Positions 1 through 36,780 of a DNA stretch of 64,000 bases are shown piece after piece (position 1 is the first letter of the stretch; each line of letters starts with the position of its first letter). The notes under the pieces are model-generated. The model saw only the letters and a program-made list of their open reading frames with translations. It was not told the origin of the DNA and did no database searches. The stretch spans positions 26,412,001-26,476,000 of the forward strand of contig CM022665.1 of assembly GCA_012295275.1 (NCBI GenBank). Reading direction: 5' to 3'. A program made the translations under genes and the position numbers. The DNA is from Chrysomallon squamiferum. Lineage: Eukaryota; Animalia; Mollusca.

Positions 1-441
1 TTTTGTTTGAAACTGAATGAGCACAATTTGCAGAATTAGCTCTTTTCTTATGCCAGCCAGTGAAAGAATCACTGGCTTGTCAGTATCATCAAAGGTGTGA
101 AATAAGCAACAGATCTGAATTCCAACCAAACTAAACGTGTTACTGCCATCATGAATTCCGAAATGCTGAATGGCTGAATTGAACTTTTGGTCTGTGAACA
201 AAAAAAAGGAATAGGTGATTTGTCGGTTTTTGGAATGAAACACTGGATTTTGGTATATTATATAGGGGATGTGTTGTTTTCTATGAAAAAAATGGATTTG
301 ATTATAGTAATGATGGCACCTTCAGCTCTAACATGCTAGTCAGTTTTTCATTTTGACAGGAATGGTGTTTGTCAGTTTTTGCACCTGAACTCTTCATACC
401 ATAGTTATTTTAATATACAAATTGTGTTTCTGATTACATAC

Positions 442-3400
442 CTGAGCAGTGGAAAAGTGATCATAGAAGGAATATCTATCTGCTCCTACAACAACAGCTG
501 AACAGCTAAAAAAAAAAAAAGTAATTATATATAATTAACATATATATCAAATGAACAGACTGACATTGGAATTGTTTGATATGATACATTTATTTGTTAG
601 AATGCAGTGATGTATAAAATAATTACTTTCCAAAACATATTAGAAAGATAAAAATCTGAAACTGGTGGGTGTTACAGGAAATATGTATAATTCCTGAAAA
701 TGTCAGAAAATAAATGCATCACTGAATTGAAAGTAATGTGGCTAGAGTTGATAATAGTCCAAGCAAAATCTACGGTCAAGGGTCTGTAGAAAGAGCAAAC
801 TGACATTATGGACATGCTTGTTTGTTGGTTTGGAGAAAACAATATAACTGAACGGACTTTTGGAATTTCACTTTTCACAGCAAAATTAAATGTTCCACAT
901 TTGTGGCACATTTGGGTTTTGAGAGTTGCACTGACCTGTTATCATCTAGCCTCCCTCACGAAAATTATCTACTTGCAGCATCTGCATTGCCAATTTCTTG
1001 AGTGAATCAGAATTTATGCATATTTTATGAAATTTTCATGAATTATACATATTTCTTGATAATATATATTTCCTGTAACATACAAACACATATACATTGA
1101 TTCTGTCCAAAAAAAAAAGACTGTCAAATAAAAAAATAGACCTATAAGTTTTTAGATTTGGACAAAAATTCTTACTCATATATTCCACCAGTTGTATCAT
1201 CACAAACTTGTTTGAAACCAACACTCAGTATACAGCCAGCCACAAATATCAAAAAACAAGCCACCACATCACCAATTACATTGATCAGGAATCCCAATCC
1301 AATCAGATCACTTCTGTAATGAACACATCAGCATTTTTTAAAATAAATTTAAAAATGAAGATGATTATCTGAACAAGAGGACAATTCATTACTGCAAAAC
1401 TGAAAAAAATTTAAAAAATGGAAATACCCCCAAATATTATTTTATTTTTCTACATATACATAAAAGTTTACTTGCAAACATTATGTCAAGATATATTATT
1501 TTAGTTTGTATAAATATTTTCCTGTTAACAAACCAAGTAATATTTATGATTTGTCCCAAAAATGTTTGAATAAGGAATAGATCACCATGTTAAAATTAGA
1601 TTAAAACTGAGAATGACTTATTTGTATACATGTTTCTATAGGAGGTGAAAAAGTTTATGTTTTCACTAACATCAGATAATAAATGGGTAAAATTTACAAA
1701 ACAAATGATCAAACTCATATGTTCTCAAAATGCAAACTTATTTCAACATTTACGAAGATAAATTTATCATTGTCTGTTACACTCACAATGGATTTAACTT
1801 CCCAATTAAATTGCTGATTCCAGCTCCAGTTAACACCAAACCAAATCCTAAGTTGAGTATGACGGAGGTTGCTACCACATATACACAATTGGAGTCTGGT
1901 CCATATAGAATGTGAACGTTTACTCTTTTACTGTACAGTAAACATTCACCTGAGCTTTTAACCTGAAAAAGGCAGGGCAACATACATATGAAAACATTAA
2001 AAAATATATATATATGTCAAAACGAATAACAGTATACTGGCGAATGCTGATGATAAAAAGAAATGGAAGACAATAACTTTAGAAACAAAATACATTATCT
2101 TAAATGAATACAAATTATTTCTTAATGTATAATTTATATAAATTGATTTGTAAATGATTTACTGTTTACTTAACATCTATAATCTATTAAATTATTTGTC
2201 TAAACTGTCATTTTATTTCTCCTTATTTCACCTCTTTTTTTTTTTAATGTCAAATTTCATCAGCGAGAATGTAACCACTGCTTTTAATCTTAATTCTATG
2301 TAAATTAGTCTCCTGCTTAACGATACCTGACTTAACTATCGGAAATTTGGAACCAATTACATCTTTAATCTGAGGTATTATTGTAGTATGGATATCGCTT
2401 ATTGCATAAAGTATGCAAATATGACAAATATCGAAATAATCTACATATCAAATGTAGTGAATGTAAATAGTTAAAACAGTAGTTATTCATCTAAAAGTAT
2501 TCCCAATGATTTGGTCCTTCATATAAACTTGTTCAGTCATAGCCAAAGTATTTACAGGTCATATCTTTAGTATACATATTATTAATATACTATGTCACAT
2601 ATATTGTATAATATGTGCACAATGTGAATATGTATGTGTACATAACATAAATATGCTCAGTAACATATATCTTGTATGTGTTTAAGCTGAATATAGTTTA
2701 ATTCGAACAGTTAATGATAAATGTAACATTAAAATATTCTATTTACTGTAAATTACTCATATGTACAATGTTTTTTTTAAATTATATTGCTGCATAAAAT
2801 TAGTTATTTCTAATATTATTTTTGTTCTTTTCTTTTACAGAAGCAAGTCATGAGAATTAAAAAAAAACCATGTCGTGCCACTTTTTTCTTTTCTTTTATT
2901 CCTTTTTTTAATAGATAGATGAAACTGATGTAAAACTGTTTATTATTGGTTGGTTGTTTTGTAACACAATGGAAATGTTTATGAATTAGAAATGACCAGC
3001 TTAAATAATAATAATAATAATAATACAAATAAGAATAAGAAGAATACGAATAATAATAACAACAACAACAATAATAATAATGTTGATGATGGTGATTATG
3101 ATAGTGATAATAAGGAAGAGGAAGATGATGATGTAATGAATAAGTAAAAAAACAAATGAGTCGTGAACGCTTATTCTGCTTTCAGTTGATGTTACATAGT
3201 CGATTTAGGAAGAATGGACTTCACTCTGAATGTTAGAATCAAGTGCCACTTTATGTCAGCAGAACAACAATAAAGAAACCAGATATTTTTATTAAGTAGT
3301 ATTTTACAGCAGAATAACATTAAGACGAAGCAAGTAATTAGTAATACTCCTTTCAGATATAATTAGTCTAAAATGAGTAAGACCAATCGGAATTAATACT

Positions 3401-3569
3401 TAATGTTCATCTCCATTAGTAACGAGTTTAACAATAAAACAGTGTAAATGTAACACGTATTTACCATACTGATTGATACTGGGACAAATATAACAAAACT
3501 GGATATAGTAATAAATATATACAGCAACATTCGAATGATGACAACTGGTTTCGTTGACACGGTCGGCAT
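442..3569 (-). CDS. TMEM179-family tetraspan membrane protein, paralog A1 (exons 1-4; exon 5 expected beyond the left window edge)
   Basis: GT-AG exons 3569-3465 (MPTVSTKPVVIIRMLLYIFITISSFVIFVPVSISM), 1962-1787 (VKSSGECLLYSKRVNVHILYGPDSNCVYVVATSVILNLGFGLVLTGAGISNLIGKLNP), 1313-1176 (SDLIGLGFLINVIGDVVACFLIFVAGCILSVGFKQVCDDTTGGIY), 505-442 (CSAVVVGADRYSFYDHFSTAQ). They splice in frame with phases 0-2-2-0. The G-x-CLL(Y/F), second Cys, SVGFxxxC and FY..F..AQ motifs resemble TMEM179 proteins. Confidence 0.85.
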
Positions 3570-4906
3570 GTTGACTCGTCAGTTTCCTCCACCTATTTGT
3601 AATTTATGCACTTTGTCCTCGATTGGTTCGAGTTCGATGTGTACTGTTTACATTTTAACAGTCGGGGATGAGAGACTACAGTTCATTGCAGTCACTATTA
3701 GTATTATCCTCTCACAGGAAAGATTAGGAAATTAAGAGATCGAACTTCCGGTTCGTATTCGAAATAATAATATTCCATAAATTAGGTAAATGACATAAAA
3801 ACAATAACAACTACAAACAAACAAACAAAACAAATATTTCTGCTTCACTGGAAAAAAAAAAAAAATGATACTTATTTATGATGATAATTTGAAAAAAAAA
3901 AAAAAAAAAAAATACGGAGTAATAGCAATTTAAATTTCAGTATTCACAGCATGTAATTTTGGCTAGTTTCGAGCTTTCATAAAACACATTTTGTGAACCA
4001 AGCTTACAGGTGCATTAAATTCTCATATCTTTCTAAAACAGCAAGATAACTATGTAATCTTCGGGATATCAAATTCGTAACATGGAATTAAAATTCTAAT
4101 TAACTGAAGTTATTCATAATTTTGTAGATAAAAGTATAAACATTTTAACTAAAATAGAAATAAAATAAACATCCAATCAAATGCAGTACTTGATCATTTG
4201 ACCTAACACTATAATGGTTTGTTTATGATCCAAATCGGATGATTTTGCTGACGTTACAAACAATGTTGCCGCTCTTCAGATTTTGATAAAACTGTGAACA
4301 AATCACGCTGAACACCTAATCGATGTTTAACATTAGGTTTACGAGGTGAAAAATACTCCTTTTTTTTTTTTTTTTTACTTATAATTTTTTTTTTTTTTAC
4401 TCTATAAGGTTATTATTCGTCGGAAAATTCAAAATAGGAGAACACATGTAGCAAACTCGGGTAATGGCCAAAAGTACAGATTTGCGGAGTGCTACAAACA
4501 TTAGTAAAGTTCTATAAATGTTTGGTAAATATATAATTTCTGCTTAGTAACTTTCTACAGCTAGTAGAGTGGACAGTAATTTTAATCTCAGTATACTTTC
4601 GATGAACATACGGTTGAGAGTGTTAAAATAGAAATACTGAGAATATTCACGTTTAATATTTTGTTAAATATTTATGGCTAATTCTTTCTTGGTCTTAGAA
4701 CTACTTGTTGAATGGAAATAGATTTATAATTTCAGTCAAAAACATTGAAAATAAATTATTCACTGGTTGTTACTGTTAGATGCTGAAATTGCAAGATTTA
4801 TGAAAAGAGTGTAAATCAAAATATTATTTCATTTATATAATTATATGATTATTTCCTGAAACAGTCGATAACATATTACTGTCTACTCTTCGCATAACAT
4901 AACAAA

Positions 4907-4963
<57 letters not shown>

Positions 4964-5929
4964 CTGTATTTGAAACAGTAGGCCTAAATTTTCAACATAT
5001 CATCGCAATACAAAATAAGAGAAAAACATGTGGGTTTCAACTTTGTCATAAAAACCCCAGTGAAAACTTAATACCCCAAATAATCGGTATTGTATTTGGT
5101 TTTCTCCCACTTTGATATTAAACTTTTTTTTTTTTTTTTTGGGGGTTGTTTGGTTTTTTGTTATTTTCATTTTAGCAAAACAAACTTCATAAATGCTGTT
5201 ACCATTTCATTATTATAAATAATTATAGTATAATAATAATTGTTTTTATCACACCTCCCAGAAAGCAATACAACACCACCTATGTTAAGATCTACCAGTA
5301 ACCTTATCTTTGACCTATGCTTTTGTCTTGTATTTAACAAATATACAGTGCATAAGTATTTAAAAAAACAACCAAAAAACATAAAAATAATTAACTGCCA
5401 TTATTTATATATAAACGGAAACAAGATGCTTGCACACATCAAAATACTTGAAGCACTCTCAAATTCATTCAAGAATAATGTAATGACATCACAACCGGAA
5501 TGATTATAGACAACAATAAAAAGAAAATAATAACAGATAGAGACAAATAGTTTCTAATAACGAAGAAATAACACCATTGAAGTGTTTCTCAAAATACAGC
5601 GCTCAGCAGGTGGAGTTCATTAAATACTGCGATTGTGACCAGTTTTGGCACATGCTGTTTTATATCACGCATTAATTAATTATTCTGATGTACTTGTTCA
5701 CATTCCAGTCCTGGCGTGGAAATTTCTTTAATTATTCTACCGTATTAATCAGAAAAAATAAAGAAAACAGAATAATATAATATTGTATATATTTGTCCAT
5801 TCATGTATACTGTCGGAACAAAATTAAATTTCTGCGAACGTTTGAAAAACGTAGTGAAGTCTGTTAGGTTAGGATGGTTTGGGGTGTAATTATAAAATTT
5901 ACTCTTACCTTGATCGAAAAGGGGCTGAG

Positions 5930-6599
5930 TGAGGGTTGCAGTGATCATATAGTGGGACTCAGAATAACTAGTACCCAGACGTAAGGCTTCAAGTGGAAAA
6001 TGGTTTTAACTTTAAAGTTTGTGATTTCCCCCCCCCCCGATCTTGTCTGGATATATCAAAATCCGGAAAACTGAGGTCAGAGAAATCGTGGGTCAACAGC
6101 ATCATCATTTGCATGGTATACTATTCTCTGACGAATCCCGCTTCCAATCAAGGAATGCTGATAGTCGGTTGCTGGTACTGCGTAAGTGTTGCGTCCTGAC
6201 GAATCAGTGAGGTGTAGGGCGGGTCCTTTCTTTTATCAGTGTTAGGATATGCACATATTTCAGCAAGACAATACCTGAGCACAAACAGCAGGTATTACGA
6301 CACAGTATTACGAAAACATAGAACAGCAGGAGTGGAACGCTATCGCCTTTTGACACCATTCGCAGACGTCGGACCGATGAGACGACATTTCATGTCTTGT
6401 GTTGCTGCAGATTTTCATTGTGAATTTACGTGTCTCTAGTACGTAGATACATTTAAATTAATCAATGACTGTGCATCCTTGACTGTTTGTTGTCATCAAG
6501 ATTCATCTGTTGCTGCTCACAACAAAAACATTTATTGCTCAGGTATTCTTTTCGAAATGCAAACATTTCTTGGTGGTGCGTTTTTAGTGCTGTTCAGTA
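5930..6599 (+). mobile_element. Decayed Tc1/mariner-family DNA transposon (DDE transposase fragments plus right end)
   Basis: + strand fragments translate to GILFSDESRFQSRNADSRLLVLR (Tc1 'VLFSDESRF...DGRVRVWR'), IFQQDNT*AQTA (Tc1 'FQQDNARPHTA'), QQEWNAI and MRRHFMSCVAAD (Tc1 C-terminal 'SMRRRCQAVIAA'). The element ends in ...gtgctgttcagta followed by a TA run. It has stops, frameshifts and internal deletions; the left boundary is approximate. Confidence 0.8.
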
Positions 6600-6648
6600 T
6601 ATATATATCAGAAATTTAACAACAGTAAGGTAAAATAGTTCTACTTAC

Positions 6649-6835
6649 TGAATTCCAGCGCTTAATGAATCACATGTTTTTTGAAGACCACCAGTCATAA
6701 TTATTGAGGCCATAAATAAGAAACTACTGGCGATTCCATCAAAAATAGCACCTAGTCGCACCATAAAACCCATTCGTTCAGCCCTGTAAAAAGGGAGCTC
6801 CAAAATTATTATTTTAGTTTGTTTGCTTCACACAA

Positions 6836-6915
<80 letters not shown>

Positions 6916-7126
6916 TGTACGGAAGAAAAGGTTGATATAAAAACCGTAAATAGATAAAAGAAAAGAGGAGGGTTAAAAAGGAACTCTCCCCTCAAAAACC
7001 CCGCTTTTTAAACAATTATAATGAAGAATATGATAAATAAATTAAATACTTACCACTGCAATGGCTAAATGTTTAATGAACAAATAACATTTTCTCGTGT
7101 TATCTTTTATGTAACCCTCGGAACAT
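6649..7126 (-). pseudogene. Partial, exon-order-scrambled pseudogene of TMEM179-like paralog B (exon 3 and exon 4 copies only)
   Basis: 6783-6649 copies B exon 3 (AERMGFMVRLGAIFDGIASSFLFMASIIMTGGLQKTCDSLSAGI). 7126-7054 copies B exon 4 (CSEGYIKDNTRKCYLFIKHLAIAV). Exons 1-2 lie beyond the duplication breakpoint, and the exon 5 region (~17270-18420 in unit 2) is missing at ~5810-5860. Confidence 0.85.
6840..6912. repeat. (GA)n microsatellite
   Basis: Perfect GA tract at a rearrangement junction; a second tract lies at ~7315-7358. Confidence 0.95.
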
Positions 7127-7311
7127 CTGGGAAAAAAAGAAGAAAAGAAAAACCCAAAACGAACAAAGAACAAATTCATAACCTAATAAATAAATCAATG
7201 AATAAACACCAACAATAAATTCACCTCTAGAACAATAATTTTTTATTATTATATTTTTATCTGTATATCTATCGATAGCTATATATATATATATATATTT
7301 GTTTGCCACTC

Positions 7312-7360
<49 letters not shown>

Positions 7361-8015
7361 ATCCTAATGGTATTTTGTTTCAAAATACTTTAAGTTTATT
7401 TATAAACTTAAAAGAATAAATTGGTCACTCTGGGTATTTAATAACGGGGGAAGAATTATAAATTCTAAAACGCTGTTTTTCCACGTATCTGTCTATTCAT
7501 CTGACTAATGAATCGAAAGCAGAAATTTAAGAGAATACTGGATATCATACACCACTGGATATATAAGTAATAGTCGTACCCTTTCATTTTATCTTCTTGC
7601 AGCGTTTCTTTTTGTCGTCTGCTCTGTTATCTGAACTACCAGTAGTTTCACTGCAAAGGATGCTTTTAACAACTAAAAAAAAAAAACAATTCTCATTTTT
7701 TTGTTTTTCTCTCTCTCTGCAGCGCTAGCAGGTGTGTATAATTCTGTGAGGGTGTGCGATTTTTGAACCAAGGCGGTTTATTGTACAGCTGTACAAGCAA
7801 GGATATGAAAAACAGAGTTGAACACGTGTTGCAATTTTTAGACATCTACCAGTGACTGATAATAGTAATATAATAGCAAATACCTTTCCAGTTACCAACA
7901 CGAATGCCTGTAACATTGTTACAAAACTCAAGTATAACAAATTCCCTACGGGTTACGGTATATATATCTCTGATTTTGAGACATTAAAACAACAACAACA
8001 ACAACAATCATCATC

Positions 8016-8046
<31 letters not shown>

Positions 8047-8771
8047 GTAAATAAATAAATAAATAAATAATAAAAGTAAATAAAAAAAACCGAAAAAACA
8101 ACGAAAAACAAACAACAACAACACACACACAAGCACAAAAAAAAAACTTATATTCAGCATGTTTTGTAGCACTTTACAAATGTTTACAAATAACTAAGAA
8201 TAATAATACAGTTAACAATACAAATAAACTATAAACATTTTAATTATTACATATTACATATTGTGCCATTAATATAGATCACATAACAAACACAACCAAC
8301 AGATAACTGACAGTAATCAGTTCCAAAAGATCACATCAGCGAATACAAAGATTAAATAAATAAGATAACAGTATAAAACTACTACAAATATTTTAATTTC
8401 TTTATGTAAGCAATATCTGTATAATCTTTCATCTGTTAATTATCTATGACTATTTCAAAAAAAAAAATAAAAAAAAATAAACACCCCCCCCCCAAAAGAA
8501 AACAACACAACAAAAAACAGAAACCTCTAATAAAATGTATCAAAGAGTATATACAAATGTTACATAAAAACAGTACAATACTTTCAAGGCTACACATACT
8601 AAGTCAGGTTATAAAACATTTATTTAAAAAAAGACATATCTGCATTTCTGCACATTAATATATACTGTCAATGGTATTAATGCATAAACTTCAATGTACA
8701 AGAAATTTGTTTATCTATATTTTAACTTGCTATTAAAAGAAAAAGAAATAAAAAAAGAGAGACAGATACTC

Positions 8772-8895
8772 TTAACCCTTTTGGCATCACTGACAATACA
8801 TTTTGACATAATGCACAAGTTTAAGTTAAGTCCTAATATATCATTACCCAAAATACCTGGTGCTCGGAAATGTGTGTTGCACCAAAAGGTTTTAA
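8772..8895. mobile_element. Possible short piggyBac-like MITE remnant
   Basis: TTAA|CCCTTTTGG ... CCAAAAGGTT|TTAA imperfect terminal inverted repeats with TTAA flanks. Confidence 0.3.
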
Positions 8896-9017
8896 AAAAC
8901 ACTTTCACAGATAATCTGAATTTTTAAAATAATCTTATCACTATTTATCATTTATGAAAATGAAATCATTAGAGAATAACATAACTTAAAGCAAATAAAA
9001 TGTTTCAATACATTAGC

Positions 9018-9256
9018 AAGGGCAGATCCAGGACTGTGTTTTGTTTGAGAAGTTAGGCTACGTCTGCCAGAGATTAAGCAGTACAAAAAGTGCTGACCTC
9101 AGTAATTTTAAAGAACTAAAATGAATCAGTGACATTTTTTATGAGTATAAAATGTGTATTTATAAATGTGCTTACAAGCAGTTTGAACTGTACAATTTTG
9201 GTCTTTTGTCTACAGAGATCCACATTTCCTTCAATCACATCGCTGGATTTGCACTT
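9018..9256. mobile_element. Possible non-autonomous DNA transposon (MITE)
   Basis: Imperfect 14-bp inverted ends aagggcagatccag ... ctggatttgcactt; no clear target-site duplication. Confidence 0.4.
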
Positions 9257-9477
9257 ACTACAAACACAGTCTTAGTACCGCAAACTAAATATTAGTTTCT
9301 CAAGTACATACTTACATTGTCTGCTTTAATAATAATCATATATAATATAACTATTTATAGTGTGTTTGTAATTATTACTTATATGTATGTATATCAAGTA
9401 ATCACTATTATATTTATTTTCAATTATTCATATAATACATACATTTGAAACAAATATAATTATCAAGGAAATATATA

Positions 9478-9807
9478 CAGGGCTCGAAATGGCCAGTCAC
9501 CAGGTCGCCAAATGAGATCAAAGTTCCATCTGGGCGTTTGGGATGTTAAAAGAATCATGGGTTAAAATAATATTTTTTGGACGATCTTTTTTCCCATAAG
9601 TTATATACAACACAAGAGCCATTATTAATAATTTTATCGCAAATATTTATTTGACATAAAAGTTTTGCTTGTAGTAATTTATAAACATTCGCTGACCCAG
9701 TATCCAAAAATTGGCCGAATACGCGGACAAATCCGAGCCTTTCCGAATGCAGTCTTAGCTTCTGTCGTCTGTTTATTTTTTTATTTTTTTTCTTCTTCTT
9801 CTTCTTC

Positions 9808-9839
<32 letters not shown>

Positions 9840-10022
9840 TTTTTTTTTCAAAAGTTAATGATCAAGTACACTTTTTCCTTCACCCTCTCCACCCCCCCAA
9901 AAAAAAATAAAATAAATAAAAAGTAAAAAATCTGGGTCATTGAATTATTTTCAAAATGAATATTTAGCGGCCCGAATTTGTTTTTTTGGCCACCATACAT
10001 TTCAGACGAGTTTTCAGCCCTG
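9478..10022. mobile_element. hAT-type MITE
   Basis: Terminal inverted repeats CAGGGCTCGAAA ... TTTTCAGCCCTG, flanked by a near-identical 8-bp duplication aatatata / aatataaa. An 8-bp TSD is characteristic of hAT elements. Confidence 0.75.
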
Positions 10023-10254
10023 AATATAAATTACATAAGAAACAGAATCAACAGATAACTGACACTAGTCAGCTCCATAATATCGCATCAGCCAATACAA
10101 TGGTTAAATAAAAAGGACAACAGTATACATTCCCAAAAGAAACTGCAACAGTCAACATAATTTGCCAGCAAAATTATGTAGACTACTGAGTTATAAGTTA
10201 CCTAACTAAATGTCAATTTCAGATTAATACAGATGGAATAATTCTTAACTTTAA

Positions 10255-10460
10255 AATTCATTGTTTCACAGTAATTATATTGTAATGATTTGTCAAAGTA
10301 TTATTCATAATTTCAGAGCAATTCCACTGGAATGATTGGTCAAAATAAAATTGGTAATTTCAGAGTAATTCCATTGGAATGATTGCTCAAAACAAATATC
10401 ATAATTTCGGAGAAACTCTACTGGAATAATTTGTCAAAGTAAAATTCATAACTTCAAATA
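10255..10460. repeat. ~47-bp degenerate minisatellite, ~4 copies, just downstream of the A2 stop codon
   Basis: Repeated unit ataatttcagagcaattccactggaatgattggtcaaaataaaattg and variants. Confidence 0.8.
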
Positions 10461-10572
10461 TATAAACACATCATAAGAGTCCCTCTGAAACAAGTAATTT
10501 AGTTTGAGACAATCACCTTGTAGTGAACTGTTATGTGATAATGAGTAATATGAGTCTTCATTCTAAATCTGT

Positions 10573-12871
10573 TTACAAAATGTTTAACTCATAATTTGGG
10601 GAACCAAGTGGCACTTGCACTGGATTACAACACAATTTACCAAGTCTCCACAGTGTGACTATCCCCACACCTACCTGAGCCAACCACAGAACAAAAGATA
10701 CCCACAGAGCTGCCTGAAAAACAATGAAGAAAACTTATATTACTTATAAATGAATGAACAATAATTAATTAATTAATTAATAATAACAGTTTATGAATTA
10801 ACATTATCATATAATAATTTTTAAATTAGTAAATATGATGCGATCTGCGAAAAGGATTACATGGTGTATAAGGTAAAAATTAGAAAAAGTTAAAAACACT
10901 GTATATACAAAATGTTAAGGATCACATGAATAAAGCCTGATATTTTATACAGTTTTTTAACTGAATTTTTCTGAATTATTTATGCATAGGTATGTCCTTT
11001 TATTGTAATAAAACCAGGTGCAATCAAGCTAGAGAAAACATTTAAGCAATGCCAAAAATTTAACAAAACAATCAATTGAATCATTAAAAATGAAGTAAAA
11101 TCAAACAGTGGGCTTTTGCAGATGACACAACAAATATTTACAATAATTTATGAAGGAATTAAAATAATGTTTAACTTATCAATGAATAAATATCATTAAT
11201 TAATAAATTAATTAACGATAATATTTATAATAAGTTAATATTAAAAATCACAGTACCATAATAACCTGTTTTCAGTAATTCCGTAACTTTTTACACCCCT
11301 CTACATTTATTTTTTTAACACACAAACAACAGCATAAAGTCAATTCATAGACTTCATTTTTTAGCATTCTGTAACTATATTAAGACTTAGTTTGTCATAT
11401 GCAGTAGCTGGTTGACAACAACATTTACCAAAACTCCAGTCAGCCAGTTAAGACTGCTATAACATCTACAATTATATATGAAGAGTTTATATGCAAAACC
11501 AGGCAAGTCTATTTTAGTTGTGTTTTCCATGCAAAAACCATCAATATGACATTGGGTAATTCTGAATTTATGTGATGTAAAAATAATTTAAAATAAAAAC
11601 AATATTTTACTGTATTTAAAAAAGAAAAAACAGACATGTCTACAACATGTTACAAATATTCACATATAAAGCATTATGGTCTTTCTGCTACAACTAAGAT
11701 GGGTTAGTATTAAAAACGAACTAACAAAACAACAACAACAAAAAAACAACAAAACAGTTGAGTGTTCTACTCAGTGACCTGGAACTTGGTCTTTGTTTAC
11801 AGTCAAAGTGTTGTATTTACACCGATATCCCTTGCATTTATCAGGGTGCTATCCTCTTTTACTTTTTCCTGTGTTGAGTAAAGCTGATCATGTGTGTATT
11901 TAAGGTCATCCTTGGACAGATGTCATACATGTGTTATCATACACATATTATGTGCATCATATATGAACGAAACTGAAAGATTGCTGTGTTGCTTTTTTGT
12001 TTGAAACTGAACGAGCAGAATTTTCAGAATTAGCTCTTTTCTTATGCCCAGCCGGTGAAAGAATCACTAGCTTGTCAGTATCATCAAAAGTGTGAAATAA
12101 GCAACAAATCTGAATTCAGACCAAACTAAACGTGTTACTGCCATCATGAATTCCGAAATGCTGAATGGCTGAATTGAACTTTTGGTCTGTGAACAAAAAA
12201 AGGAACAGGTGATTTGTCGGTTTTTGGAATGAAACACTGGATTTTGGTATATTATATAGGGGATGTGTTGTTTTCTATGAAAAAAATGGATTTGATTATA
12301 GTAATGATGGCACCTTCAGCTCAAACATAGTAATCATTATTTCATTTTGACAAGAATGGTGTTTGTCAGTTTTTGCTGCTGAACTCTTCATATCATGGTT
12401 ATCTTAATATAAAAACTGTGTAAACATATTACTGATTACATACCTGAGCAGTGAAAAAGTCACCATAGAAGAAATACATATCTGTTATTAGAAAAGAAGC
12501 TGCACAGCTAAAACAAATTAAGTAATTATATATAATGAAATGAAAAATAAAATAAATGAATAAAATAAATTAAAAAAAAAGTAATAAATAATTTTAAAAA
12601 AGATAAGTGTAAAATTAAATAAATTTATAAATAAAGTAAAAAGCAATAAATAATAAAATAAATAAATGAAATAGTGACATTTTAGTATATATTAACTCTG
12701 TTTCATTATCTATAGGATAAATTAACAATATTCGCACTTATCCCTTTTTTTTCTTCTTTTTTTTGAACACGTTTGAACGGTTGATATCATACATTTATTT
12801 GTTAGAATCCACTGATGTATAAAATAATTACAGTTTCTAAAAAAATATTTAAAAAATAAGAATTTGAAACT

Positions 12872-12923
<52 letters not shown>

Positions 12924-13354
12924 GTACAGGAAATATGTATAAATCAGAAATCCATGTATCACTGAATTGAAAGTAATGTGGCTAGAGTTGATAATGGTCC
13001 AAGGAAAATCTAGGCATCCAGTGAGCCAAGGGTTTGTATAAAGATCAACTTGACATTAAGGACATGCTTGTTTGTTCGTTTGGAGATAAAAGTATAATTG
13101 AATAGACATTTCAACTCAGTATACTGAATTTCAAAACTTTTGTGGCACAGCTGGGTTTTGATGCTTGCACTGGGCTGTTATCATCTAGCCTCCCTCTTTA
13201 AATAATCCATCAGTTGTAATCAAGAGAATGATCTACTTATAGCCTTTGCATTGCCAGTTTCCTGAGTGAATCAGAATTTATGCATATTTTCTTGAATTTT
13301 TAGGAATTATATATATTATATATATATATATATTATAGGAAATATATACAATTA

Positions 13355-13385
<31 letters not shown>

Positions 13386-15009
13386 CATGAATTAAGAAAC
13401 AGATCTATAAACTTGGCCAAATATTCTTACTCATTTATTCCAACAGATAGTTCATTGCAAGCGTGTTTGAAACCAACACTCAGTATACAGCCAGCCACAA
13501 ATATCAAAGAACAAGCCACCACATCGCAAATTACATTGATCAGGAATCCCGATCCAATCAAATCACTTCTGTAATAATAAATTATGTTAGAACATTAACT
13601 TTTTTTATAAATTTAAAAATGAAGATGATTATCTGAACAAGAGGACAATTCATTACTGCAAGTGTGAAAAAAATAAATAAATAAAAAATATATATTTTTT
13701 TTAAAATTATGTCCAGATTTTATATTATTTTGGGTGGTATAAATATTTTCAATATAAACAAACTAAGTGATATTTATGATTTGTATCCAAAATGTTTGAA
13801 TAAGGAATATATAACATGTACATATATTACCACGTTAAAATGTTTGTATAGGAAGAGGAAAAAGGTTGATGTCTTCACTAATATCAGATAAATGGGTAAA
13901 ATTTACAAAACAAATGATCAAACTCAAAGGTTCTCAAAATGCAAACTTATTTCAACATTTACGAAGATAAATTTATCATTGTCTGTTACACTCACAATTG
14001 ATTTAACTTCCCAATTAAATTGCTGATTCCAACTCCAGTTAACACCAAACCAAACCCTAAGTTGAGTATGACGGAGGTTGCTACCACATATACACAATTG
14101 GAGCTTGGTCCATATAGAAACCGAATGGGAACAATGGAAGCTTTTGATATTCTTTTACTGTATAGTAAACAATGACCTGAGCTTTTAACCTGAAAAAGGC
14201 ACGGCAACATACACATGAACACATTAATAATTATAATAATAATAATATTAAATAAAAATGATGAAAAGTATAATTAACAGTAAATATTATTACTTTATTA
14301 GTATTATTATTAACACTATTAACATTTACTGTGTGTTAATCCTGTTTATTCTTGCATTTGATGTGACCCACTGTGTCACTTTATGCTGTTATATGTTATC
14401 AGTAAATAGCAAGTGATCTCTTACATAAAAAAGCTATCTATACAACCTTTGATAAATAAGACATGGCACACTGGTTGAAGAGGAAACAAGCAGAATGAGT
14501 ACACAGAGGAAACTGTGAAATGAACCACTTGGCTTACAGTCTGCTCTTGAACGTAATTCAAATAAAGAAAATGTACTTGGTTCAATTTTACATTTTATAA
14601 AATAGGAAGGACAGTTTATTATTTTGCATTGCTATAATATGACATAATAATGGCTTTTATTTTATCATCATCATTTTACAAATAGGTATCATCAAGTGAG
14701 AGACGTGTGTGGGTGAATGTGTGAGAGAGATATTTTTATTAAGTAGTATTTTACAGCAGAATAACATTAATTAGAACCAAGTAATACCCCTTTCAGATAA
14801 AATTAGTCTAAAATGTGTAAGACCAATCGGAATTAATACTTAATGTTCATCTCCATTAGTAACGAGTTTAACAATAAAACAGTGTAAATGTAACACGTAC
14901 TTACCATACTGATTGATACTGGGACAAATATAGCAAAACTGGATATAGTAATAAATATAAACAGCAACATTCGAATGATGACAACTGGTTTCGTTGACAC
15001 GGTCGGCAT
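10573..15009 (-). CDS. TMEM179-family tetraspan membrane protein, paralog A2 (213 aa, complete)
   Basis: Exons 15009-14905, 14189-13996 (VKSSGHCLLYSKRISKASIVPIRFLYGPSSNC...), 13568-13431 (...SVGFKHACNELSVGIN), 12507-12444 (CAASFLITDMYFFYGDFFTAQ), 10713-10573 (AALWVSFVLWLAQVGVGIVTLWRLGKLCCNPVQVPLGSPNYELNIL*). Total 642 nt, all GT-AG, four hydrophobic segments. Confidence 0.9.
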
Positions 15010-16549
15010 GTTGACTCGTCAGTTTCCTCCACCTATTTGTAAATTATGCACTTTGTCCTCGATTGGTTCGAGTTCGATGTGTACTGTTTGACTTTGTACA
15101 GTTCGGGGATGAGAGACTACAGTTCATTGCAGTCACTATTATCCTCCCACAGGAAAGATTAGGCAATTAAGAGATCGAACTTCTGGTTCGTGTTCTAATT
15201 TAACACTAATCCATAAATTAGGTAAATGACAAAAAACAACAACAAACAAACAAACAAAACAAATATTTCTGTTTCACTGGATACTTATTTTTGAAGATAA
15301 CTTGAAAAAAATACGGAGTAATAGCAATTTAAATTTCAGTATTCACAGCATGTAATTTCGGCTAGTTTCGAGCTTTCATAAATTTTCAGGTGCATTAAAT
15401 TTTATATCTTTCTAAAAAAGCCAGATGACTATGTAATTTTCGGGATATCAAATTCAGTACATTAAAATTCGAATTAACTAAAGTTATTCATAATTATGTA
15501 GATAAAATTATAAACATTTAAACTAAAATAAACATCTAATCAAATGCAGAACTCGATCATATGACTAACAAAATAAAGGTTTGTTTATGATCCAAAAAGG
15601 ATGATTTTTGCTGTGCACAAATCATGCTGAATACCTAATCTACATTTAACATTAGTTTTACGAAGTGAAAAATCCTTTTTTTTTTTTTTTTTTTTTTTAC
15701 TTGGATAATTCTATGAAATTATTATTCGTCGGAAAATTAAAAATACTTCAACACCAAAAGGAAAAATTCAGAAGGGAAGCAATGGAGAAATATGTGTACT
15801 TAATCACCAACTAGGCTTTTATTTCAGAAATTTTAAAAACGTATGAAATAGAGCAGCAGTTCTGGAGGAAGTACGAGCACACATGCAGCAAACTCAGGTA
15901 ATGGCCAAAAGTACAGATTTGCGGAGTGCTACAAACATTAGTAAAATTCTATAAATGTTTGGTAAATATATAATTTCTGCTTAGTAACTTTCTACAGCTA
16001 GTAGAGTGGACGGTAATTTTAATCTCAGTATACTTTCGATGAACATACGGTTGAGACTGTTAAAATAGAAATACTGAGAATATTCACGTTTAATATTTTG
16101 TTAAATATTTATGCTAATTCGTTCTTGGTCTTAGAACTACTTGCTGAATGGAAATAGATTTATAATTTCAGTCAAAAACATTGAAAATAAATTATTCACT
16201 GGTTGTTACTGTTAGATGATGAAACCGCAAGATTTATGAAAAGGGTGTAAATCAAAATATTATAAACATTTATATAATTATATGATTATTTCCTCAAACA
16301 GTCGATAACATATTACTGTCTACTCTTCGCGTAACAGAACAAAACACACACACAGACATATATATATATAAAATCTGTATTTGAAACAGTAGGCTTACAT
16401 TTTCAACATATCATCGCAATACAAAATAAGAGAAAAACAGGTGGGTTTCAACTTTGTCATAAAAAAAAACAATGAAAACTTAATACCAAAAATAATCAGT
16501 ATTAGTATTTGGTTTTCTTTCACTTTGTTGTAACAAATTTCAGTTTTTA

Positions 16550-16597
<48 letters not shown>

Positions 16598-17845
16598 CAT
16601 CATTTTCATTTTAGCAAAACAAACTTCATAAATGCAATTACCATTTCATTATTATAAATAATTATAGTATAATAATAATTGTTTTTATCCCGTCCCCCAG
16701 AAAGCAATATAACACCACCTATGTTAAGATCTACCAGTAACCTTATCTTTGACCTATGCTTTTGTCTTGTATTTAACAAATATACAGTGCATAAGTATTT
16801 TAAAAAAAACATAAAAATAATTAACTGCCATTATTTATATATAAACGGAAACAAGATGCTTGCACACATCAAAATACTTGAAGCACTCTCAAATTCATTC
16901 AAGAATAATGTAATGACATCACAACCGGAATAATTATAGACAACAATAAAAAGAAAATAATAAAGAAAATAATAACAGATAGAGACAAATAGTTTCTAAT
17001 AACGAAGAAATAACACCATTGAATTGTTTCTCAAAATACAACGCTCAGCAGGTGGAGTTCATTAAATACTCTGATTGTGACCAGTTTTGGCACATGTTCT
17101 TTTATATCACGCATTAATTAATTATTCTGATGTACTTGTTCAGATTCAAGTCCCAGCATCTAGTCTGGAAATTTCTTTAATTATTCTATCATTATATTGT
17201 ATTAATCAGAAAATATAAAGTAAAGAGAATAATGTAATTTTGTATGTATTTTTCCATTCGTGTATCCTGTGAGCGTTTGTGCGTTTCCTTAGAATTTAGA
17301 AGTACAATACACTTTTATAAAACGTTCAGAAATAAAGTAAACTTAGTAATTACATCATCAAAAAAAAACAACAACAACAACAACAAAACAAAAAAAACAC
17401 AAAAAAAAACCACTCGCTACTTCAGCACATATTCTTCACATATGTGTTTTTGAACAATATTTTCATTGCTGGTAGATGTTCCAGATGACAGACAACTCTG
17501 AATACTTAGTTTACCAAGTTTTCTCAGTGTGTACAATGCTACACAAAGCTGGGCCAGCCAAAGCACAAAGGATATCCAGCATGCAACCTTGGAAGAAGAA
17601 GAATAAAAAGCTAAATAATAAAAAGACAGAAACGAAAAACAGAAAAATAAAATAAAATAAAATAAAAATAAATAAAAACAACGACAAAACACCAAAAAAA
17701 AAAAAAAACCCTACACCAAAACAACAACAATAAAAACATACAATAATAACTGAAATAATTATAATATAAAATGCTTAATTTACGTTGCAAAGAAATCACG
17801 CGTGTTTGTATAACATACACATATATCTATGTGTGTTTCTTTAGT

Positions 17846-17881
<36 letters not shown>

Positions 17882-20135
17882 TGAAAATATAAAGTTTGTT
17901 TCTAACGTATGAAATAAACTGCACAGCATTGAAAACGCACAACCAGTTGATGATAAATGAGAACGGAATGGAATGGAATGGAAAAAAATGAACGTGCTAA
18001 TCAGAGCAAGCTGTTGTGAAGCACGTCTACGACGGGCACGCTTTCTGACAGGTCAGCGGGCGTGTCCGTCGCAGAATGAGAACGGGGCGTTATCAGCATT
18101 AAAATATCAATGAATAAATACCGTACTACTCACAGACCATGCATGACGACGAATAACTTACAAAAAGGAAACGGGAGCCTACGGACTAATGGAGGGAGCA
18201 CCGGTTAATAAAAATACAAAAGTCTGGGAAATCGGGAATGTAAACATTAACCCTAAAATTTAGCGAAATAATAAACTTTTGTACACTTAACAGCTACATA
18301 GATCAGTAATATAATCAATAAGAACAATATACAGACATAAAAACAAATGTAAACAAATGTTATACAGTATATGTAAAGATAAATGTACAGGAAAAAAATA
18401 TTGGCTAGTTTGGGTGACGTTTGTTACGTTAGGATGGTTTGGGGTGTAATTATAAAATGTACGCATAACTTGATGGAAAAGGCGCTGAGAGAGTGTTGCA
18501 GTGATCGTATAGTGGGACTCAGAATAAATTAATAGTTGCTAGACGTAAGGTTTTGAAATGGAAACTGGCGCTAAGTTCAAATTTAGTCATTGTTTTTTTT
18601 GGGGGTTTTCCAGATCTGGTCTGGGTATCTCGAAATCCGGAAAACTGAGGTCAAAGAAATCGTGGGTCAACAGTATCATTATTTGCATGGTATACTATTC
18701 TCTGACGAATCCCACTTACAATCAAGGAATGCTGATAGTCGGACCGATGAGACGACATTTCATGTCTTGTGTTGCTGCAGATTTTCATTGTGAATTTACG
18801 TGTCTCTAGTACGTAGATACATTTAAATTAATCAATGACTGTGCATCCTTGTCTGTTTGTTGTCATCAGTGATTCATCTGTTGCTGCTCACAACAAAAAC
18901 ATTTATTGCTCAGGTATTCTTTTCGAAATCCAAACATTTCTTGGTGGTGCGTTTTTAGTGCTGTTCAGTATATATATCAGAAATTTAACAACAGTAAGGT
19001 AAAATAAAAACAACTGCAGTATTTATTGGATACCCCATGTTATTTCCTGGGCTGTAAATGATCTTAAAAGAGATAAATATAACTAATCTCAGATTGTGTA
19101 CGACTTAATGCGACTTAATTATATTTTTTCAGTCGTAAAAACGTACGATTTCAAGTAATTTAGCAAGATATTTTCTTGGCTTTAAATGTTTTATTTTTTT
19201 GTTTTAAGATAGAGAGGGAGAGAGAGGAATTAAAACTAAAATGTACGGAAGAAAAGGGTGATATAAAAACCGTAAATAGATAAAAGAAAAGAGGTGGTGT
19301 AAAATAAGGAACCTCTCCCCCGAAAATCCAGCTTTTTAAATAATAATAGTTATTCAAAATAATTATAATGATGAATATAATAAGTAAAATAAAATACTTA
19401 CCATGGCAGTGGCTAAATGTTTATAGAAGAAATAAAATTTTCCCGTGTTATCTTTTATGTAACCCTCAGAACATCTGGGAAAAAAACCCAAAACAAACAA
19501 AGAACAAATTCATAACCTAATAAATAAATCAATGAATAAACACGAACAATAAATTCACCTCTACAACAATAATTTTTCATTATTTATTTTTATCTGTCTG
19601 TATATCTATCTATAGCTATATATATACATATATTTGTTTGCCAGTCACAGGACTATTTTTTCTAAAGAATAGTTTTTGTTGTTGTTGTTGTTTTCAATCT
19701 TTCTTTCACTACTCTCGTCCACCCAATGGTGATGTAGAATTAATCAACACATGTGTTGAAACAATCTAGTATAGTATAATCACCTTTTCCTTATATGTCA
19801 ATGAATCTTAGAAATTAACTTGAGCTTTGTAGGAAGTCTTTAGAAATGTAATAAAAAGTACGATAGAATCAAACATAAAAATAAAAATAGAAGCGACGAA
19901 ATTATACATTAAATAAGATCCACTGCGAAGACTAACACAGTTCTACTTACTGAATTCCAGCGCTTAATGAATCACATGTTTTTTGAAGACCACCAGTCAT
20001 AATTATTGATGCCATAAATAAGAAACTACTGGCGATTCCATCAAAAATAGCACCTAGTCGCACCATAAAACCCATTTGTTCAGCCCTGTAAAAAGGGAGC
20101 TCCAAAATTATTTATTTAGTTTGTTTGCTTCACAC

Positions 20136-20206
<71 letters not shown>

Positions 20207-20821
20207 GATCAGTTCTAAATGGTATTTTGTTTCAAAAGACTATCTACAAACTTAAAAGAACAAATTGGTCACTCTGGGTATTTAATAATGGGGAAGAATT
20301 ACTAATTCTAAAACGCTTATTTTCCAAGTATCTACCTGATCATCTGACTAATGAATCGAAAGCAGAAATTTAAGAGAATACTGGATTTCATACACCACTG
20401 GATATATAGTAATAGTCGTACCCTTTCGTTTTATCTTCTTGCAGCATTTCTTTTTGTCATCTGCTCTGTTATTTGAACTGCCAATAGTTTCACTGCAAGG
20501 GATGCTTTTAACAACAGTTAATAAAAAAACAGCTCGTTTCCCCCTCTGTCTCTCTACAGCGTTTGTAGGTGTGTATAATTCCATGAAGGTGTGTATATAT
20601 ATTTTTAAACTAAGGCGAGATTTTGTCTGCAGTACAAGCAAGGGTATGCAAAACAGGGTTGAACACATGTTGCTATTTGTAGACATCTACCTGTGACTGA
20701 TAGTAGTAATATAATAGCAGTTTCATGACCAACACGAATGCCTGTAACATTGTCACAAAAATCCGGGATAACGAATTCTCTAAGGGCTATGGTATATAAC
20801 AAATCTCTGATTTTGAGACTT

Positions 20822-20874
<53 letters not shown>

Positions 20875-20955
20875 AAAAAAAAAGTAAAATAAATAAATAA
20901 ATTAAAAAAAATAATAAAACGAAAACAAAACTTATATTCAACATTTTTTTGTAGT
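11995..20955. repeat. Tandem segmental duplication, unit 2 (portion alignable to unit 1)
   Basis: Counterpart of 1-8170. The full unit probably starts near 8170, giving a period of ~12-12.8 kb. Confidence 0.9.
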
Positions 20956-22170
20956 AGTTGAATGAGTATTAAAAACGGTAACAGAAGTTATTTCTTCAGA
21001 ATTATTTCTAAATCAAAAATTAAAAAATCCGTAACAAACAAAACATAGCATAAACAAAATAAAAATAGTAATAAAAATGTTAAAATGAATGTATAGATTA
21101 GGATGCAGACGAATTCGTAACACTTATTTTCATTTTGAATAGAATCTTGAAAAAAGTTTAATGAAAACTGGTAAGAAAACTTGAAGTGGAACATTTGTAT
21201 TAAGTTATCACTATAACAGAGTTCCACTGTCATACAGAAGTATTAGTACCAGCAACAGCCGTATTACTAGTAGTAGTGGTTGTAGTTGTAGTAGCTGAAT
21301 ATAGTATAATAGTAGTGATATATAGTAGTAGTAGTAATAGCAGTAATATGCAGTTGTTGTGGTAGTAGCTGAAGCAACAGAACAGCTGGAGTAACAGCAT
21401 TAAAGTAGTAATAGTAGAAGCAGTTGTAGCAGCAATAGCAGTAGCAGCTACAGTGGTAGTAACAACATAATCGTAATGGAAGGATTCAGTTCAATGAAAA
21501 CAAAAATACTTACTGAGAGACTGTTGGCTGTCTTTTATCTACAACAGTTACAAATCCTTCAGCAAAGAAAACTACCCCAGAGATCAAATTAAAGACGACT
21601 GAAATTGCTTGAACAAACATACAGTTCCCCTTTTTCCCGTATACGATCATTTTAAAGTATTCATGGGGTTTCGATGTCGTTGTAGAGTACAGCAAACAAT
21701 TACCAGAACATTTCGTCTGTGCAGATAACAATAATAACAATAATAATAATATTAGTTTTATAATAATTACCTTTATCTTTCGGGATGCGGGGGGTAATAA
21801 CTAAATCACTATTATCATGTATAAAAACTATGAAATGTGAATGAATATTCTGAGCATGAAATGATATAATACAATTCTAATGATGTATGTGACACATTTT
21901 CATTTAATTTTGAAATTTAAAAATATTTATATTAATGCATCAGTTTTTCAATTCTTGAATTTCATGTCATTTAAACTTATTTCATATCGATAACGAGGTA
22001 AAATCATGTTAGTTTTCATTAGGAAAATTTTTTACACAAGCAGTAACAGTAATATAACTTTTACTTACCATACTAACCGCAAGAGGGATAAATATTGCAA
22101 AACTTATAACAATGATAGCTATATAAAGTAATGTCCTAAAGCAAATTATTATTTTTGCTGACTGCACCAT
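17417..22170 (-). CDS. TMEM179-family tetraspan membrane protein, paralog B (227 aa)
   Basis: Exons 22170-22069 (MVQSAKIIICFRTLLYIAIIVISFAIFIPLAVSM), 21716-21514 (TKCSGNCLLYSTTTSKPHEYFKMIVYGKKGNC...), 20085-19951 (AEQMGFMVRLGAIFDG...GLQKTCDSLSAGI), 19474-19402 (CSEGYIKDNTGKFYFFYKHLATAM), 17587-17417 (VACWISFVLWLAQLCVALYTLRKLGK...EYVLK*). Total 684 nt in frame. Confidence 0.9.
18490..18970 (+). mobile_element. Second copy of the decayed Tc1/mariner element, in intron 4 of paralog B
   Basis: Duplicate of 5930-6599 (GILFSDESH..., MRRHFMSCVAAD, same right end) lacking 204 bp between two gtcgg pentamers. Confidence 0.75.
21245..21475. repeat. Degenerate (AGT/AGC)n trinucleotide low-complexity tract
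   Basis: Visible agt/agc/aac reiteration in intron 2 of paralog B. Confidence 0.8.
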
Positions 22171-23526: not shown

Positions 23527-23670
23527 TCAGCGCTTCATTTGGACTGTAACAACCTCTGCACAGAATACAGCAGAGGCTAGACCCAAAACTAACTGGACTA
23601 GCCACATCAAATCAGCAAACCAGCAAGAAATCTAAGAAGAAAAAAAATATTAAAATGGAAAATTACTACA

Positions 23671-23739
<69 letters not shown>

Positions 23740-28500: not shown

Positions 28501-28695
28501 TTATTTTTTTTGACCCTTCATTTGAACAGTAATGACTTGTGCAAGACAAACCACTGCAGCAAGGGCTATCACAAGTTGTATTAGCCAAAGAACAACAGAA
28601 ATCCAGGCAGACGTCTGAATAAAGAAAAATAACAGCGTCTTATATCATGGCAGATAAACAGATGATAAATAATTGTATAGGTGTGTACATGTACG

Positions 28696-28762
<67 letters not shown>

Positions 28763-29878
28763 TTAACATCACAGCTGAAATGAAGAACGTATTAATATAT
28801 TACAAATACAAATATTAATCTCAACAAAAAGAGAAATGTCCGCATTTTCGGTTTAGACCACTATATAGAGAGTAAGTTATTATCGGAGGAAAATTAAAAT
28901 AAATATTAACTGCAGCTGGACAATGGAAAACTACAGAGATAATAAATAAGTAAATACATATGTCTGTTAGTGTGGATGTTTATTTTTGACATCAAAATAT
29001 TGATAAATCAATCAAACCATTGCCACTGATAAATGATCATAGAAGTAATAGTTCCTGCCATTTCGATCAGTAATATATGAATTTTCACAACTGAAATAAA
29101 AGAAATAAGCGATCTGAGAATAACAGAATTCTTACTTTTGTCTAAATTCAAACTCAAAAGTAACTATTCTTATTTCAGCAAGAAATTGAAACAACTAGTG
29201 TGGATATATTATTAGTACGCAGAATATTCCTTTTAATAAATAACTATATTCTTTTCTTTATTTTTACCTGCGCATAATTAATAGATTGTAAACGTTACAA
29301 TTCCAGAATACATTTGAAAGTCTTTGTCTACTGAGATTTATTATTCACTTCATCATCCTGGCTAGTAGCCAGTTTGAATTATTCACCAGTTTCACTTTAA
29401 ATTCCTACGTATCTTTAATTCACACATCGCAATAACATTTCTGCATGAATACGAAACTATTGGGTAGTGCAAATATTTCTGTTTTATTTATTTTACATTT
29501 TTATTTTATTTTGTATACAGTTAAAATATAGCAGCTATTTTTTGTTGTTATTTATTCATTTATAGCTGTCATTTTATAATTTTAAGATTTATATGGTTTG
29601 TAAATTGTAAGGTTTATACAATGTGTAAATTGTAAGGTTTATATAGTTGTAAATCGTAAGGTTTATAAAGTATATAAATCGGTTTACTTCCTCATGTTTC
29701 CAGCCAAATTCTCACATGTAATTTGAAGTCCATGGGTTATAACACCGGCGCAAGCCATCATGAATACAAAGCAAAGTCCATCCATTAACAGACTAAGTCG
29801 ATAATTACGACTTGCTACGTTAACCCTGTTTAAAACATATGCATAGTTAGTATTAATTATATTAACTGAATTAATCTA

Positions 29879-29932
<54 letters not shown>

Positions 29933-30958: not shown

Positions 30959-31045
<87 letters not shown>

Positions 31046-31763
31046 CACAGTGACGAAGTTACTTAGGGTGCCTACAAATCAATCCGTTACTAACATAAAG
31101 ATAAGGAAGGCACGAATGAACGAACAGTTTCAATAAAAAAATAACTAGCATTAAGAAAAGATAAAACAACAATCATAAAACAAAAAAGCAAAAAAACACC
31201 AAAAATACCCACCAACCCCGCCCCCAAAAAACAATTGTATCATCTTCTAGAAGTAGCTAATCGAAATATAAAATATTTCTTGTGCAGTGTTGTTCATGCT
31301 GATTATTCATTCATTCATTATTATAATAAATAAATAAATAATGATAATAATAATAATAATTGCCAGTATTTAAAACAATTATTATTACTATTATTAGACA
31401 ACTGACATTTATTTTGAAATTAACAACAAAATGCTGATGACATACTTTATCCGTTTTTTTTTTTACCTATTTTGGGTTCTGGTCAGTCGATCGTCAGTAA
31501 TTTTTCAGAAGAAAAATAAATCAAACGATTTGTTGTGTTTGATTATTATTATTATTATTATTTCATAATTATTACTATGAATTTATAAAATAACAAAAAA
31601 AAAATAAATAAATAAAAATAATAAAATAAATCAAAGATTTATGATTATCAGTTACAGCAATAAAACTTTAAAATGTTTGGGATTTTTGTTGTATTTGTTA
31701 ACCGATTGCTTTTTAATTTAATTTTTATTATTTTTTTTTTTTTTTTTTTACTAAATAAATAAT

Positions 31764-31797
<34 letters not shown>

Positions 31798-35347: not shown

Positions 35348-35389
<42 letters not shown>

Positions 35390-36747: not shown

Positions 36748-36780
<33 letters not shown>

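Follow-up and report, generated by a model that had tools for sequence, protein, structure and literature searches.

The window analyzed here, a stretch of 64,000 nucleotides from Chrysomallon squamiferum (contig CM022665.1 of assembly GCA_012295275.1, forward-strand positions 26,412,001 to 26,476,000), is AT-rich animal DNA, and eight tetraspan genes of the TMEM179 family, together with one dead fragment, are clustered within 62 kb of it. Exon modeling from the sequence alone yielded eight models of five exons each, all open in frame, with common intron phases and canonical splice sites; the minus strand carries A1, A2, B2, C, D and E, and the plus strand F and G. A1 and A2 belong to a tandemly duplicated block, revealed by self-BLAST, in which positions 1-8102 (A1 and the 3' part of a B gene) match positions 11995-20931 (A2 and the 3' part of B2). 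The differences between these two duplicates are concentrated in one loop of the protein, loop 2, and it is the origin of this pattern that is addressed below.

A1 begins with exon 1 at 3465-3569, which contains the ATG and the first transmembrane segment (TM1), followed by exon 2 (1787-1962; loop 1 and TM2), exon 3 (1176-1313; TM3, with the loop 2 portion at 1176-1213) and exon 4 (442-505), which codes for the rest of loop 2 and the start of helix 4 and has AG/GT flanks and an open frame. Exon 5 would sit to the left of the window start, so the A1 model covers exons 1-4. The exons of A2 were placed at 14905-15009, 13996-14189, 13431-13568 (loop 2 portion 13431-13468), 12444-12507 (exon 4, 64 bp) and 10573-10713, the last coding for TM4, the tail and the stop; the hydropathy plot of A2 displays four hydrophobic segments. 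In the sequencing runs X2, X4, X5 and X9, no contig covered A2 exon 4 (region 12290-12535), a gap that carries no weight, as the A1-type contig known from X5 went unrecovered too; a 39-base match in this region was dismissed as unrelated and out of frame. Introns 3 (506-1175) and 1 of A1 contain interspersed high-copy repeats, at about 700-1045 and 2040-3060, respectively, with summed depths of hundreds to tens of thousands (240-800 for the intron 3 repeat, with many joints in three runs), and the intron 1 repeat is missing from A2.

Codon alignment of the pair revealed that 19 of the 34 residues of loop 2 (A1 codons 128-161) differ, against 10 of 123 elsewhere (Fisher p 9e-9). In exon 4 (442-505 versus 12444-12507), 14 nucleotide differences replace 11 of 21 residues and leave no purely synonymous codon, and exon 3 (1176-1313 versus 13431-13568) has 11 replaced residues and two synonymous codons, with eight of the 11 in the loop portion. 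An earlier, sequence-only reading of this DNA had obtained these counts by hand, and all of them turned out to be exact. Its statement that the cysteines are kept was equally borne out, all four family-invariant cysteines being present along with GT-AG splice sites and open frames, as was the near-identity of the TM regions, since residues are changed in just 7 of the 101 codons outside both loops. That reading had overlooked the differences in loop 1, the TMEM179 family identity and the six additional full-length paralogs. Loop 1 contains an 18-nucleotide in-frame indel, longer in A2 (14100-14150, versus 1900-1925 in A1), with three clear replacements and four ambiguous codons beside the indel, which were excluded from every count of nonsynonymous (dN) and synonymous (dS) divergence; the length of loop 1 varies among most paralogs.

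When substitutions were counted by NG86, loop 2 had a dN of 0.378 and a dS of 0.072 (22.5/75.8 nonsynonymous versus 1.5/21.8 synonymous; Fisher p 0.04), while the corresponding values outside the loops were 0.033 and 0.041. Codon models fitted by maximum likelihood returned omega values of 5.9-8.9 for loop 2 in all four cases, with parametric-bootstrap p values of 0.020, 0.007, 0.017 and 0.045, the last two from models permitting 9% and 17% doublet mutations, respectively. For the whole gene, with no region picked, omega was 1.7-2.6 (p 0.025, 0.035, 0.055 and 0.11). The nonsynonymous sites of loop 2 are also changed above the level of intron 3 (22/76 versus 0.159, p 0.003), and with the neutral rate set to the raised level of that intron (d=0.18), omega of loop 2 was 2.1 (p 0.004). 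Overall, these comparisons moderately favor divergent positive selection on an exposed surface of loop 2, with gene conversion likely erasing the differences elsewhere.

A number of observations weigh against this interpretation. A baseline of 20% cuts the loop 2 excess to p 0.04; neutral simulations in which the total of differences was held fixed gave p 0.08-0.18 in loop 2 and p 0.03-0.21 in exon 4, and the zero synonymous codons of exon 4, taken alone, had a p of about 0.06-0.12 in neutral simulation. When each changed codon was scored once, loop 2 was at p 0.05 and exon 4 at p 0.06, and dropping the two-base codons led to 0.11 and 0.14, respectively; four of the 19 replaced loop 2 codons hold two changes, and multi-nucleotide codon changes are described as inflating selection tests and generating false positives (bioRxiv 10.1101/165969). 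The total divergence of loop 2 (24/102) does not significantly exceed that of intron 3 (p 0.08), 1-2% of the non-coding windows are as dense in differences as loop 2, and nonsynonymous change in loop 1 is only 5/47 (p 0.28). It should also be noted that the tests compare two sequences only, that loop 2 was picked post hoc from a scan of many windows, that exon 5 of A1 lies beyond the window, and that the topology, ligand and expression of A1 and A2 are predicted at most. Considering the weakness of the simple tests and the multi-nucleotide codons, the scarcity of synonymous change in loop 2 is suggestive, short of decisive. As to the diversifying selection proposed by the sequence-only reading, the amino acid excess survives the codon models, but in a weaker form than the hand count had implied, as intron 3 has also diverged.

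Without any positive selection, the same differences could have accumulated in a weakly constrained loop 2 that was missed by conversion and so displays the real age of the pair (about 16-20% divergence), helped by a few multi-nucleotide mutations and by a lack of synonymous changes that is due to chance at such low counts. The changes do fall on family-variable positions (entropy in 100 relatives, 3.30 bits at the changed versus 2.15 at the unchanged positions of loop 2, p 0.0004), and the divergence of intron 3 (15-16%) and of the exon 4 flanks (8-12%), the compatibility of the synonymous count of 1.5/21.8 with 16% (p 0.30), the count simulations (p 0.08-0.18) and the clustering of non-coding differences (15% adjacent to a difference versus about 10% at lags 3-10) all agree with such a history. 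Nonetheless, the entropy contrast also counts in favor of selection over decay, as the changes avoid conserved positions; the six most conserved sites of loop 2 are all unchanged (p 0.004), and despite these six unchangeable codons the nonsynonymous sites have reached 29-30%, well above 16% (p 0.003), while the doublet-aware models retain p 0.017-0.045. Nor is loop 2 relaxed in other members of the family: between C and D it is the most conserved region (38% versus 55-58% in the TM regions), and between G and its ortholog in Gigantopelta aegis it is no faster than TM2-TM3 (25% versus 33%). We thus regard a neutral loop as unlikely, although it retains an appreciable chance. The duplicated block contains a neutral control of its own in the dead fragment B1, of which pseudo-exon 4 has two synonymous codons, six replaced residues, a lost conserved Tyr and an omega near 1. 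With B2-G as outgroups, and scored by eye, derived loop 2 residues occur in both A1 and A2.

Substitution-only divergence of the non-coding DNA was 5.7% in introns 1 and 4 (12/210 and 24/419, respectively), 6.4% upstream (119/1846) and 15.9% in intron 3 (70/441 aligned columns). The claim of the earlier reading that alignable non-coding DNA is more similar than exon 4 is, therefore, correct for introns 1 and 4 and the upstream DNA, but not for intron 3, which is not significantly lower than exon 4 (14/64; Fisher p 0.28). The alignable part of intron 3 is mostly high-copy repeat; its non-repeat flanks are also elevated, at about 8-13%, and the zone of raised divergence extends contiguously from about 317 to 1680, spanning the intron. 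Over the duplicated block, the non-coding divergence varies from 1 to 17%, with a variance-to-mean ratio of 2.7-3.0 (overdispersion p below 1e-9), and 13 identical tracts of at least 60 bp were observed against 1.3 expected, with none of 2000 permutations having as many. Synonymous sites outside the loops are changed at 3/75, under the baseline of 12-15% (p 0.016-0.002), and the near-identity of the TM exons thus looks partly conversion-made. Comparison of B1 with B2 carries both ages, with two differences in exon 3 and 9/73 in exon 4. Taken together, the divergence of intron 3 and the 1-17% mosaic indicate that the pair probably has a greater age than its similarity suggests, and the block is likely an old duplicate in which gene conversion has overwritten some stretches; a mutation rate that varies along the DNA may be an alternative source of the mosaic. 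The duplicates had been called recent, which, in view of intron 3 and the seemingly converted TM exons, is probably an overstatement.

A contiguous zone of raised divergence that covers intron 3, within a block that is demonstrably mosaic, could also have been imported, either A1 or A2 having received its exon 3-4 segment, through unequal crossing-over or conversion, from a third and remoter A-type paralog beyond the window; A1 straddles the window edge, so further copies may exist outside. For a tract of this kind the sequence-only reading had anticipated raised divergence of both introns and synonymous sites. Only the intronic half was found (15-16%), the synonymous sites of the tract being at just 7%, and the window contains no near donor, as B2-G share at most 42% of their residues with the A genes. 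The excess of dN over dS would, moreover, remain unexplained in an imported tract, and we accord little probability to this origin. Seven sequencing runs of one organism contain 61-80% of the A2 region's words. All three DNA-type runs, which come from three studies, have copy-1-specific contigs (299-698, 3930-4489 and 7556-7978) as well as contigs that reach the A2-specific intron 1. In runs X1, X3 and X5, contigs of exon 5 and of shared introns have about 1.8-2.3 times the depth of the A1-specific contigs, which, by this crude measure, fits two copies. The contig across A1 exon 4 and its flanks had 0, 0 and 2 other letters per about 400 bases in the three DNA-type runs, and the A1 exon 3 loop contig had no variant letters in both runs that list it. 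These data fit two genuine copies and a stable A1 loop, though contigs drop variants.

A heterozygote would likewise show shared contigs at twice the depth of copy-specific ones if A1 and A2 were highly divergent haplotypes of one locus, assembled side by side, in which case the loop difference would be a balanced allelic polymorphism; the depth comparison is without a single-copy control, and no contig was seen across the junction near 8100. Such an assembly artefact is, however, quite improbable, because both copies were recovered in each of the three DNA-type runs, and because B1 is truncated, scrambled and decayed, as is expected of a duplicate that lacked its first exons from the start. 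Two signals in the runs were rejected upon inspection. In X1, X3 and X5, contigs of A2 exon 2 bear letters of the A1 type, and contigs of exon 1 bear letters of the A2 type; these were not taken for alleles, as their intermediate depth fits bubbles collapsed between the two copies. A contig of the RNA run X8 (3463-3652, including A1 exon 1) breaks off two bases past the exon boundary, at the point from which spliced and unspliced transcripts would differ; since X8 also contains intronic contigs, no credit for expression was given.

Outside A1 and A2, the block and its neighborhood contain the remaining members of the cluster. B1 (6649-7126, minus strand) consists of exons 3 (6649-6783) and 4 (7054-7126), their order swapped, with exons 1, 2 and 5 missing; the breakpoints of the swap (6631-8102 versus 19207-20931) sit at (GA)n microsatellites, and a microsatellite-guided rearrangement is possible. 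Its counterpart B2 (17417-22170, minus strand) has an open frame over exons 22069-22170, 21514-21716, 19951-20085, 19402-19474 and 17417-17587. Paralogs C (23527-26216), D (28501-32065) and E (35238-39129, on a long branch in the tree) follow on the same strand, each with five exons and an open frame, and F (43777-46414) and G (48371-61986), also of five exons, are on the plus strand. The top database match of F is Patella SNE40_010447, at 41%, and G is a conserved ortholog of gastropod TMEM179-like proteins, with a first intron (48482-59767) of 11.3 kb that is much longer than those of the paralogs. B2, C, D, E, F and G are all full-length and mutually just 17-50% identical, and the expansion of the cluster may itself be more notable than the A1/A2 pair. 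Between E and F lies an open reading frame (ORF) of 437 codons (40873-42186, minus strand; 40% GC) that has loose repeats and an abundance of Tyr, Cys, Asp, Glu and Lys, and is overlapped by long open frames on both strands; it had no Pfam family above cut-off and may encode a secreted or matrix protein of low complexity, or else represent a repeat. Directly downstream of it is a MITE-like inverted repeat of about 350 bp at 83% identity (40322-40819). Short local direct repeats pair 8265-8375 with 10017-10127 and 43307-43460 with 44747-44902, and another such pair, 24337-24438 and 29672-29775, corresponds to exon 3 of C and of D.

Identification of the family came from a profile search with exon 2, which retrieved one protein, of Gigantopelta aegis, bearing the precomputed annotation PF26158 (Claudin_TMEM179-179B); G is 79% identical to the G. 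aegis protein XP_041352963. For this G. aegis ortholog, a 352-residue isoform X1 is annotated alongside a 227-residue form. The G group comprises the G. aegis protein and nine more, seven of the nine being gastropod entries under names such as ‘transmembrane protein 179-like’. A family profile was built from ten gastropod TMEM179-like proteins (P0001-P0010), all with precomputed PF26158, in place of the curated model. In hmmsearch with this profile (Z=1e6), A2 scored 76 bits (E 2e-19), A1 57 bits (E 1e-13), F 65, B2 52, C 38 and D 37 bits, and E was the only one of the eight window proteins that was not reported. Pfam scans of single window exons assigned a family to 0 of 7 and 0 of 8. In a tree of 24 rows, hand-picked from 59, A1, A2, B2, C, D and E group as a single clade (support 97/92; 93 in a quick tree of all 59 rows), which suggests an expansion in the snail lineage, E being a long branch and A-F being sampled from no close species. 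Database proteins are at most 36% identical to these six (159 examined); no ortholog of A1 or A2 was found among these 159 proteins from other species, the top match being 31-36%, and the profile search had 365 matches, of which 150 were listed. Word-index searches for A-E orthologs elsewhere gave just the G ortholog or the query itself, and a 32-base pattern of exon 3 had no match in metagenome contigs. In Patella, the F-like and G-like genes have consecutive locus tags (SNE40_010447 and SNE40_010448), and in Haliotis asinina the contigs of the two are equally long, so that the F-G pair looks ancient.

The fold was examined in relatives of A1 and A2, which were not themselves modeled. AlphaFold models of P0001 (G-type) and P0021 (F-type), with pLDDT of 79 and 89, respectively, have four long helices, and both proteins are in Claudin_TMEM179-179B clusters of the Atlas (0.93-0.95). 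One cysteine pair per loop and a Gly before loop 2 are invariant or nearly so in 100 relatives and are present in A1 and A2, which in these features match TMEM179 and TMEM179B. The best Foldseek rows for the two models were MARVEL tetraspans, namely synaptogyrin (E 0.004, TM 0.54/0.70) and synaptophysin (E 0.03), both with E above 0.001; however, sarcospan and designed four-helix bundles tied in a wide fold search (Z 12.3-13.6), and the MARVEL domain PF01284 reached 26.5, 22.8 and 15.2 bits in three of seven relatives scanned, under its gathering cut-off of 32.8 bits. Classic claudins possess a Trp-Gly-Leu-Trp signature and a multi-strand beta sheet in loop 1. A1 and A2 share with them the four helices and the loop 1 cysteine pair, together with weak fold rows, but loop 1 of A1 and A2 has no Trp, and hence no W-GLW signature, and the beta sheet is unmatched, with zero strands in the P0021 model and a two-strand hairpin in that of P0001. 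The invariant cysteine pairs in both loops suggest an extracellular or luminal position, and the cysteine-pinned loop 2 is predicted to face the outside or the lumen of a vesicle or vacuole. The terms ‘external’ and ‘binding surface’ for loop 2 are likewise deduced, and the vesicle lumen side could apply.

The following history would reconcile these results with positive selection on loop 2. A block consisting of gene A together with the 3' half of B would have been duplicated, its unconverted DNA reaching 12-16% divergence since then, and B1, born without the first exons, would have decayed. Conversion tracts would subsequently have homogenized exon 1, parts of TM2 and TM3 and stretches of introns, while in loop 2, pinned by its cysteines and presumably facing the outside or a vesicle or vacuole lumen as in synaptophysin-type MARVEL proteins, replacements would have been fixed in both copies at free positions, with the scaffold of two cysteines, Phe-Tyr and Ala kept. 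Selection against overwriting of loop 2 would then leave a divergence peak with raised flanks, as in exon 5 of the human red and green opsins. Fast evolution of duplicated surface loops is a general pattern, and by this analogy, if selection is granted, a microbial or viral ligand at the cell surface or at the phagosome or vacuole membrane is the leading single candidate for the partner, though less probable than not. It would be a further and rather improbable step that the TMEM179 family was co-opted in the snail lineage as a diversifying cluster of microbe-recognition tetraspans, in which A1 and A2 would each be tuned through loop 2 to a bacterial or viral ligand of its own, perhaps on a membrane that houses or screens endosymbionts.

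We know of no instance of loop selection in MARVEL vesicle proteins. Divergence peaks in converting duplicates are established in the red/green opsins (exon 5) and in RHD/RHCE (PMC3924837), where, as in A1/A2, a peak exon is combined with homogenized tracts; in the opsins, however, the introns on either side hardly differ and the critical residues have been identified, whereas intron 3 of A1/A2 is itself at 16%. A selected loop in converting duplicates is, therefore, a well-known evolutionary pattern, for which the support here, from two sequences, is moderate. In the parts of the literature available, human TMEM179 and TMEM179B, two genes as opposed to eight in 62 kb in the snail, are stated to have no known function (PMC4815072), tmem179b is among the genes raised in zebrafish iridophores (PMC12727525), and one further paper gives only expression data for TMEM179 (PMC12841848). 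A literature search, with supplements and subscription papers outside its scope, found no publication on a molluscan TMEM179 expansion; the main text of the vent-snail genome paper (PMC7736800), as far as it was available, is without the words ‘TMEM’, ‘claudin’ and ‘transmembrane’, and its supplements may list the family.

The value of these findings, thus, lies mainly in the uncharacterized TMEM179 family and its lineage-restricted expansion. Within the cluster, A1 and A2 amount to a natural experiment, as nearly all of their difference is in one loop, which flags loop 2 as the working surface, and they constitute a matched pair suited to loop-swap binding tests. If the host is the symbiotic vent snail, A1 and A2 would be candidates for host-microbe recognition.

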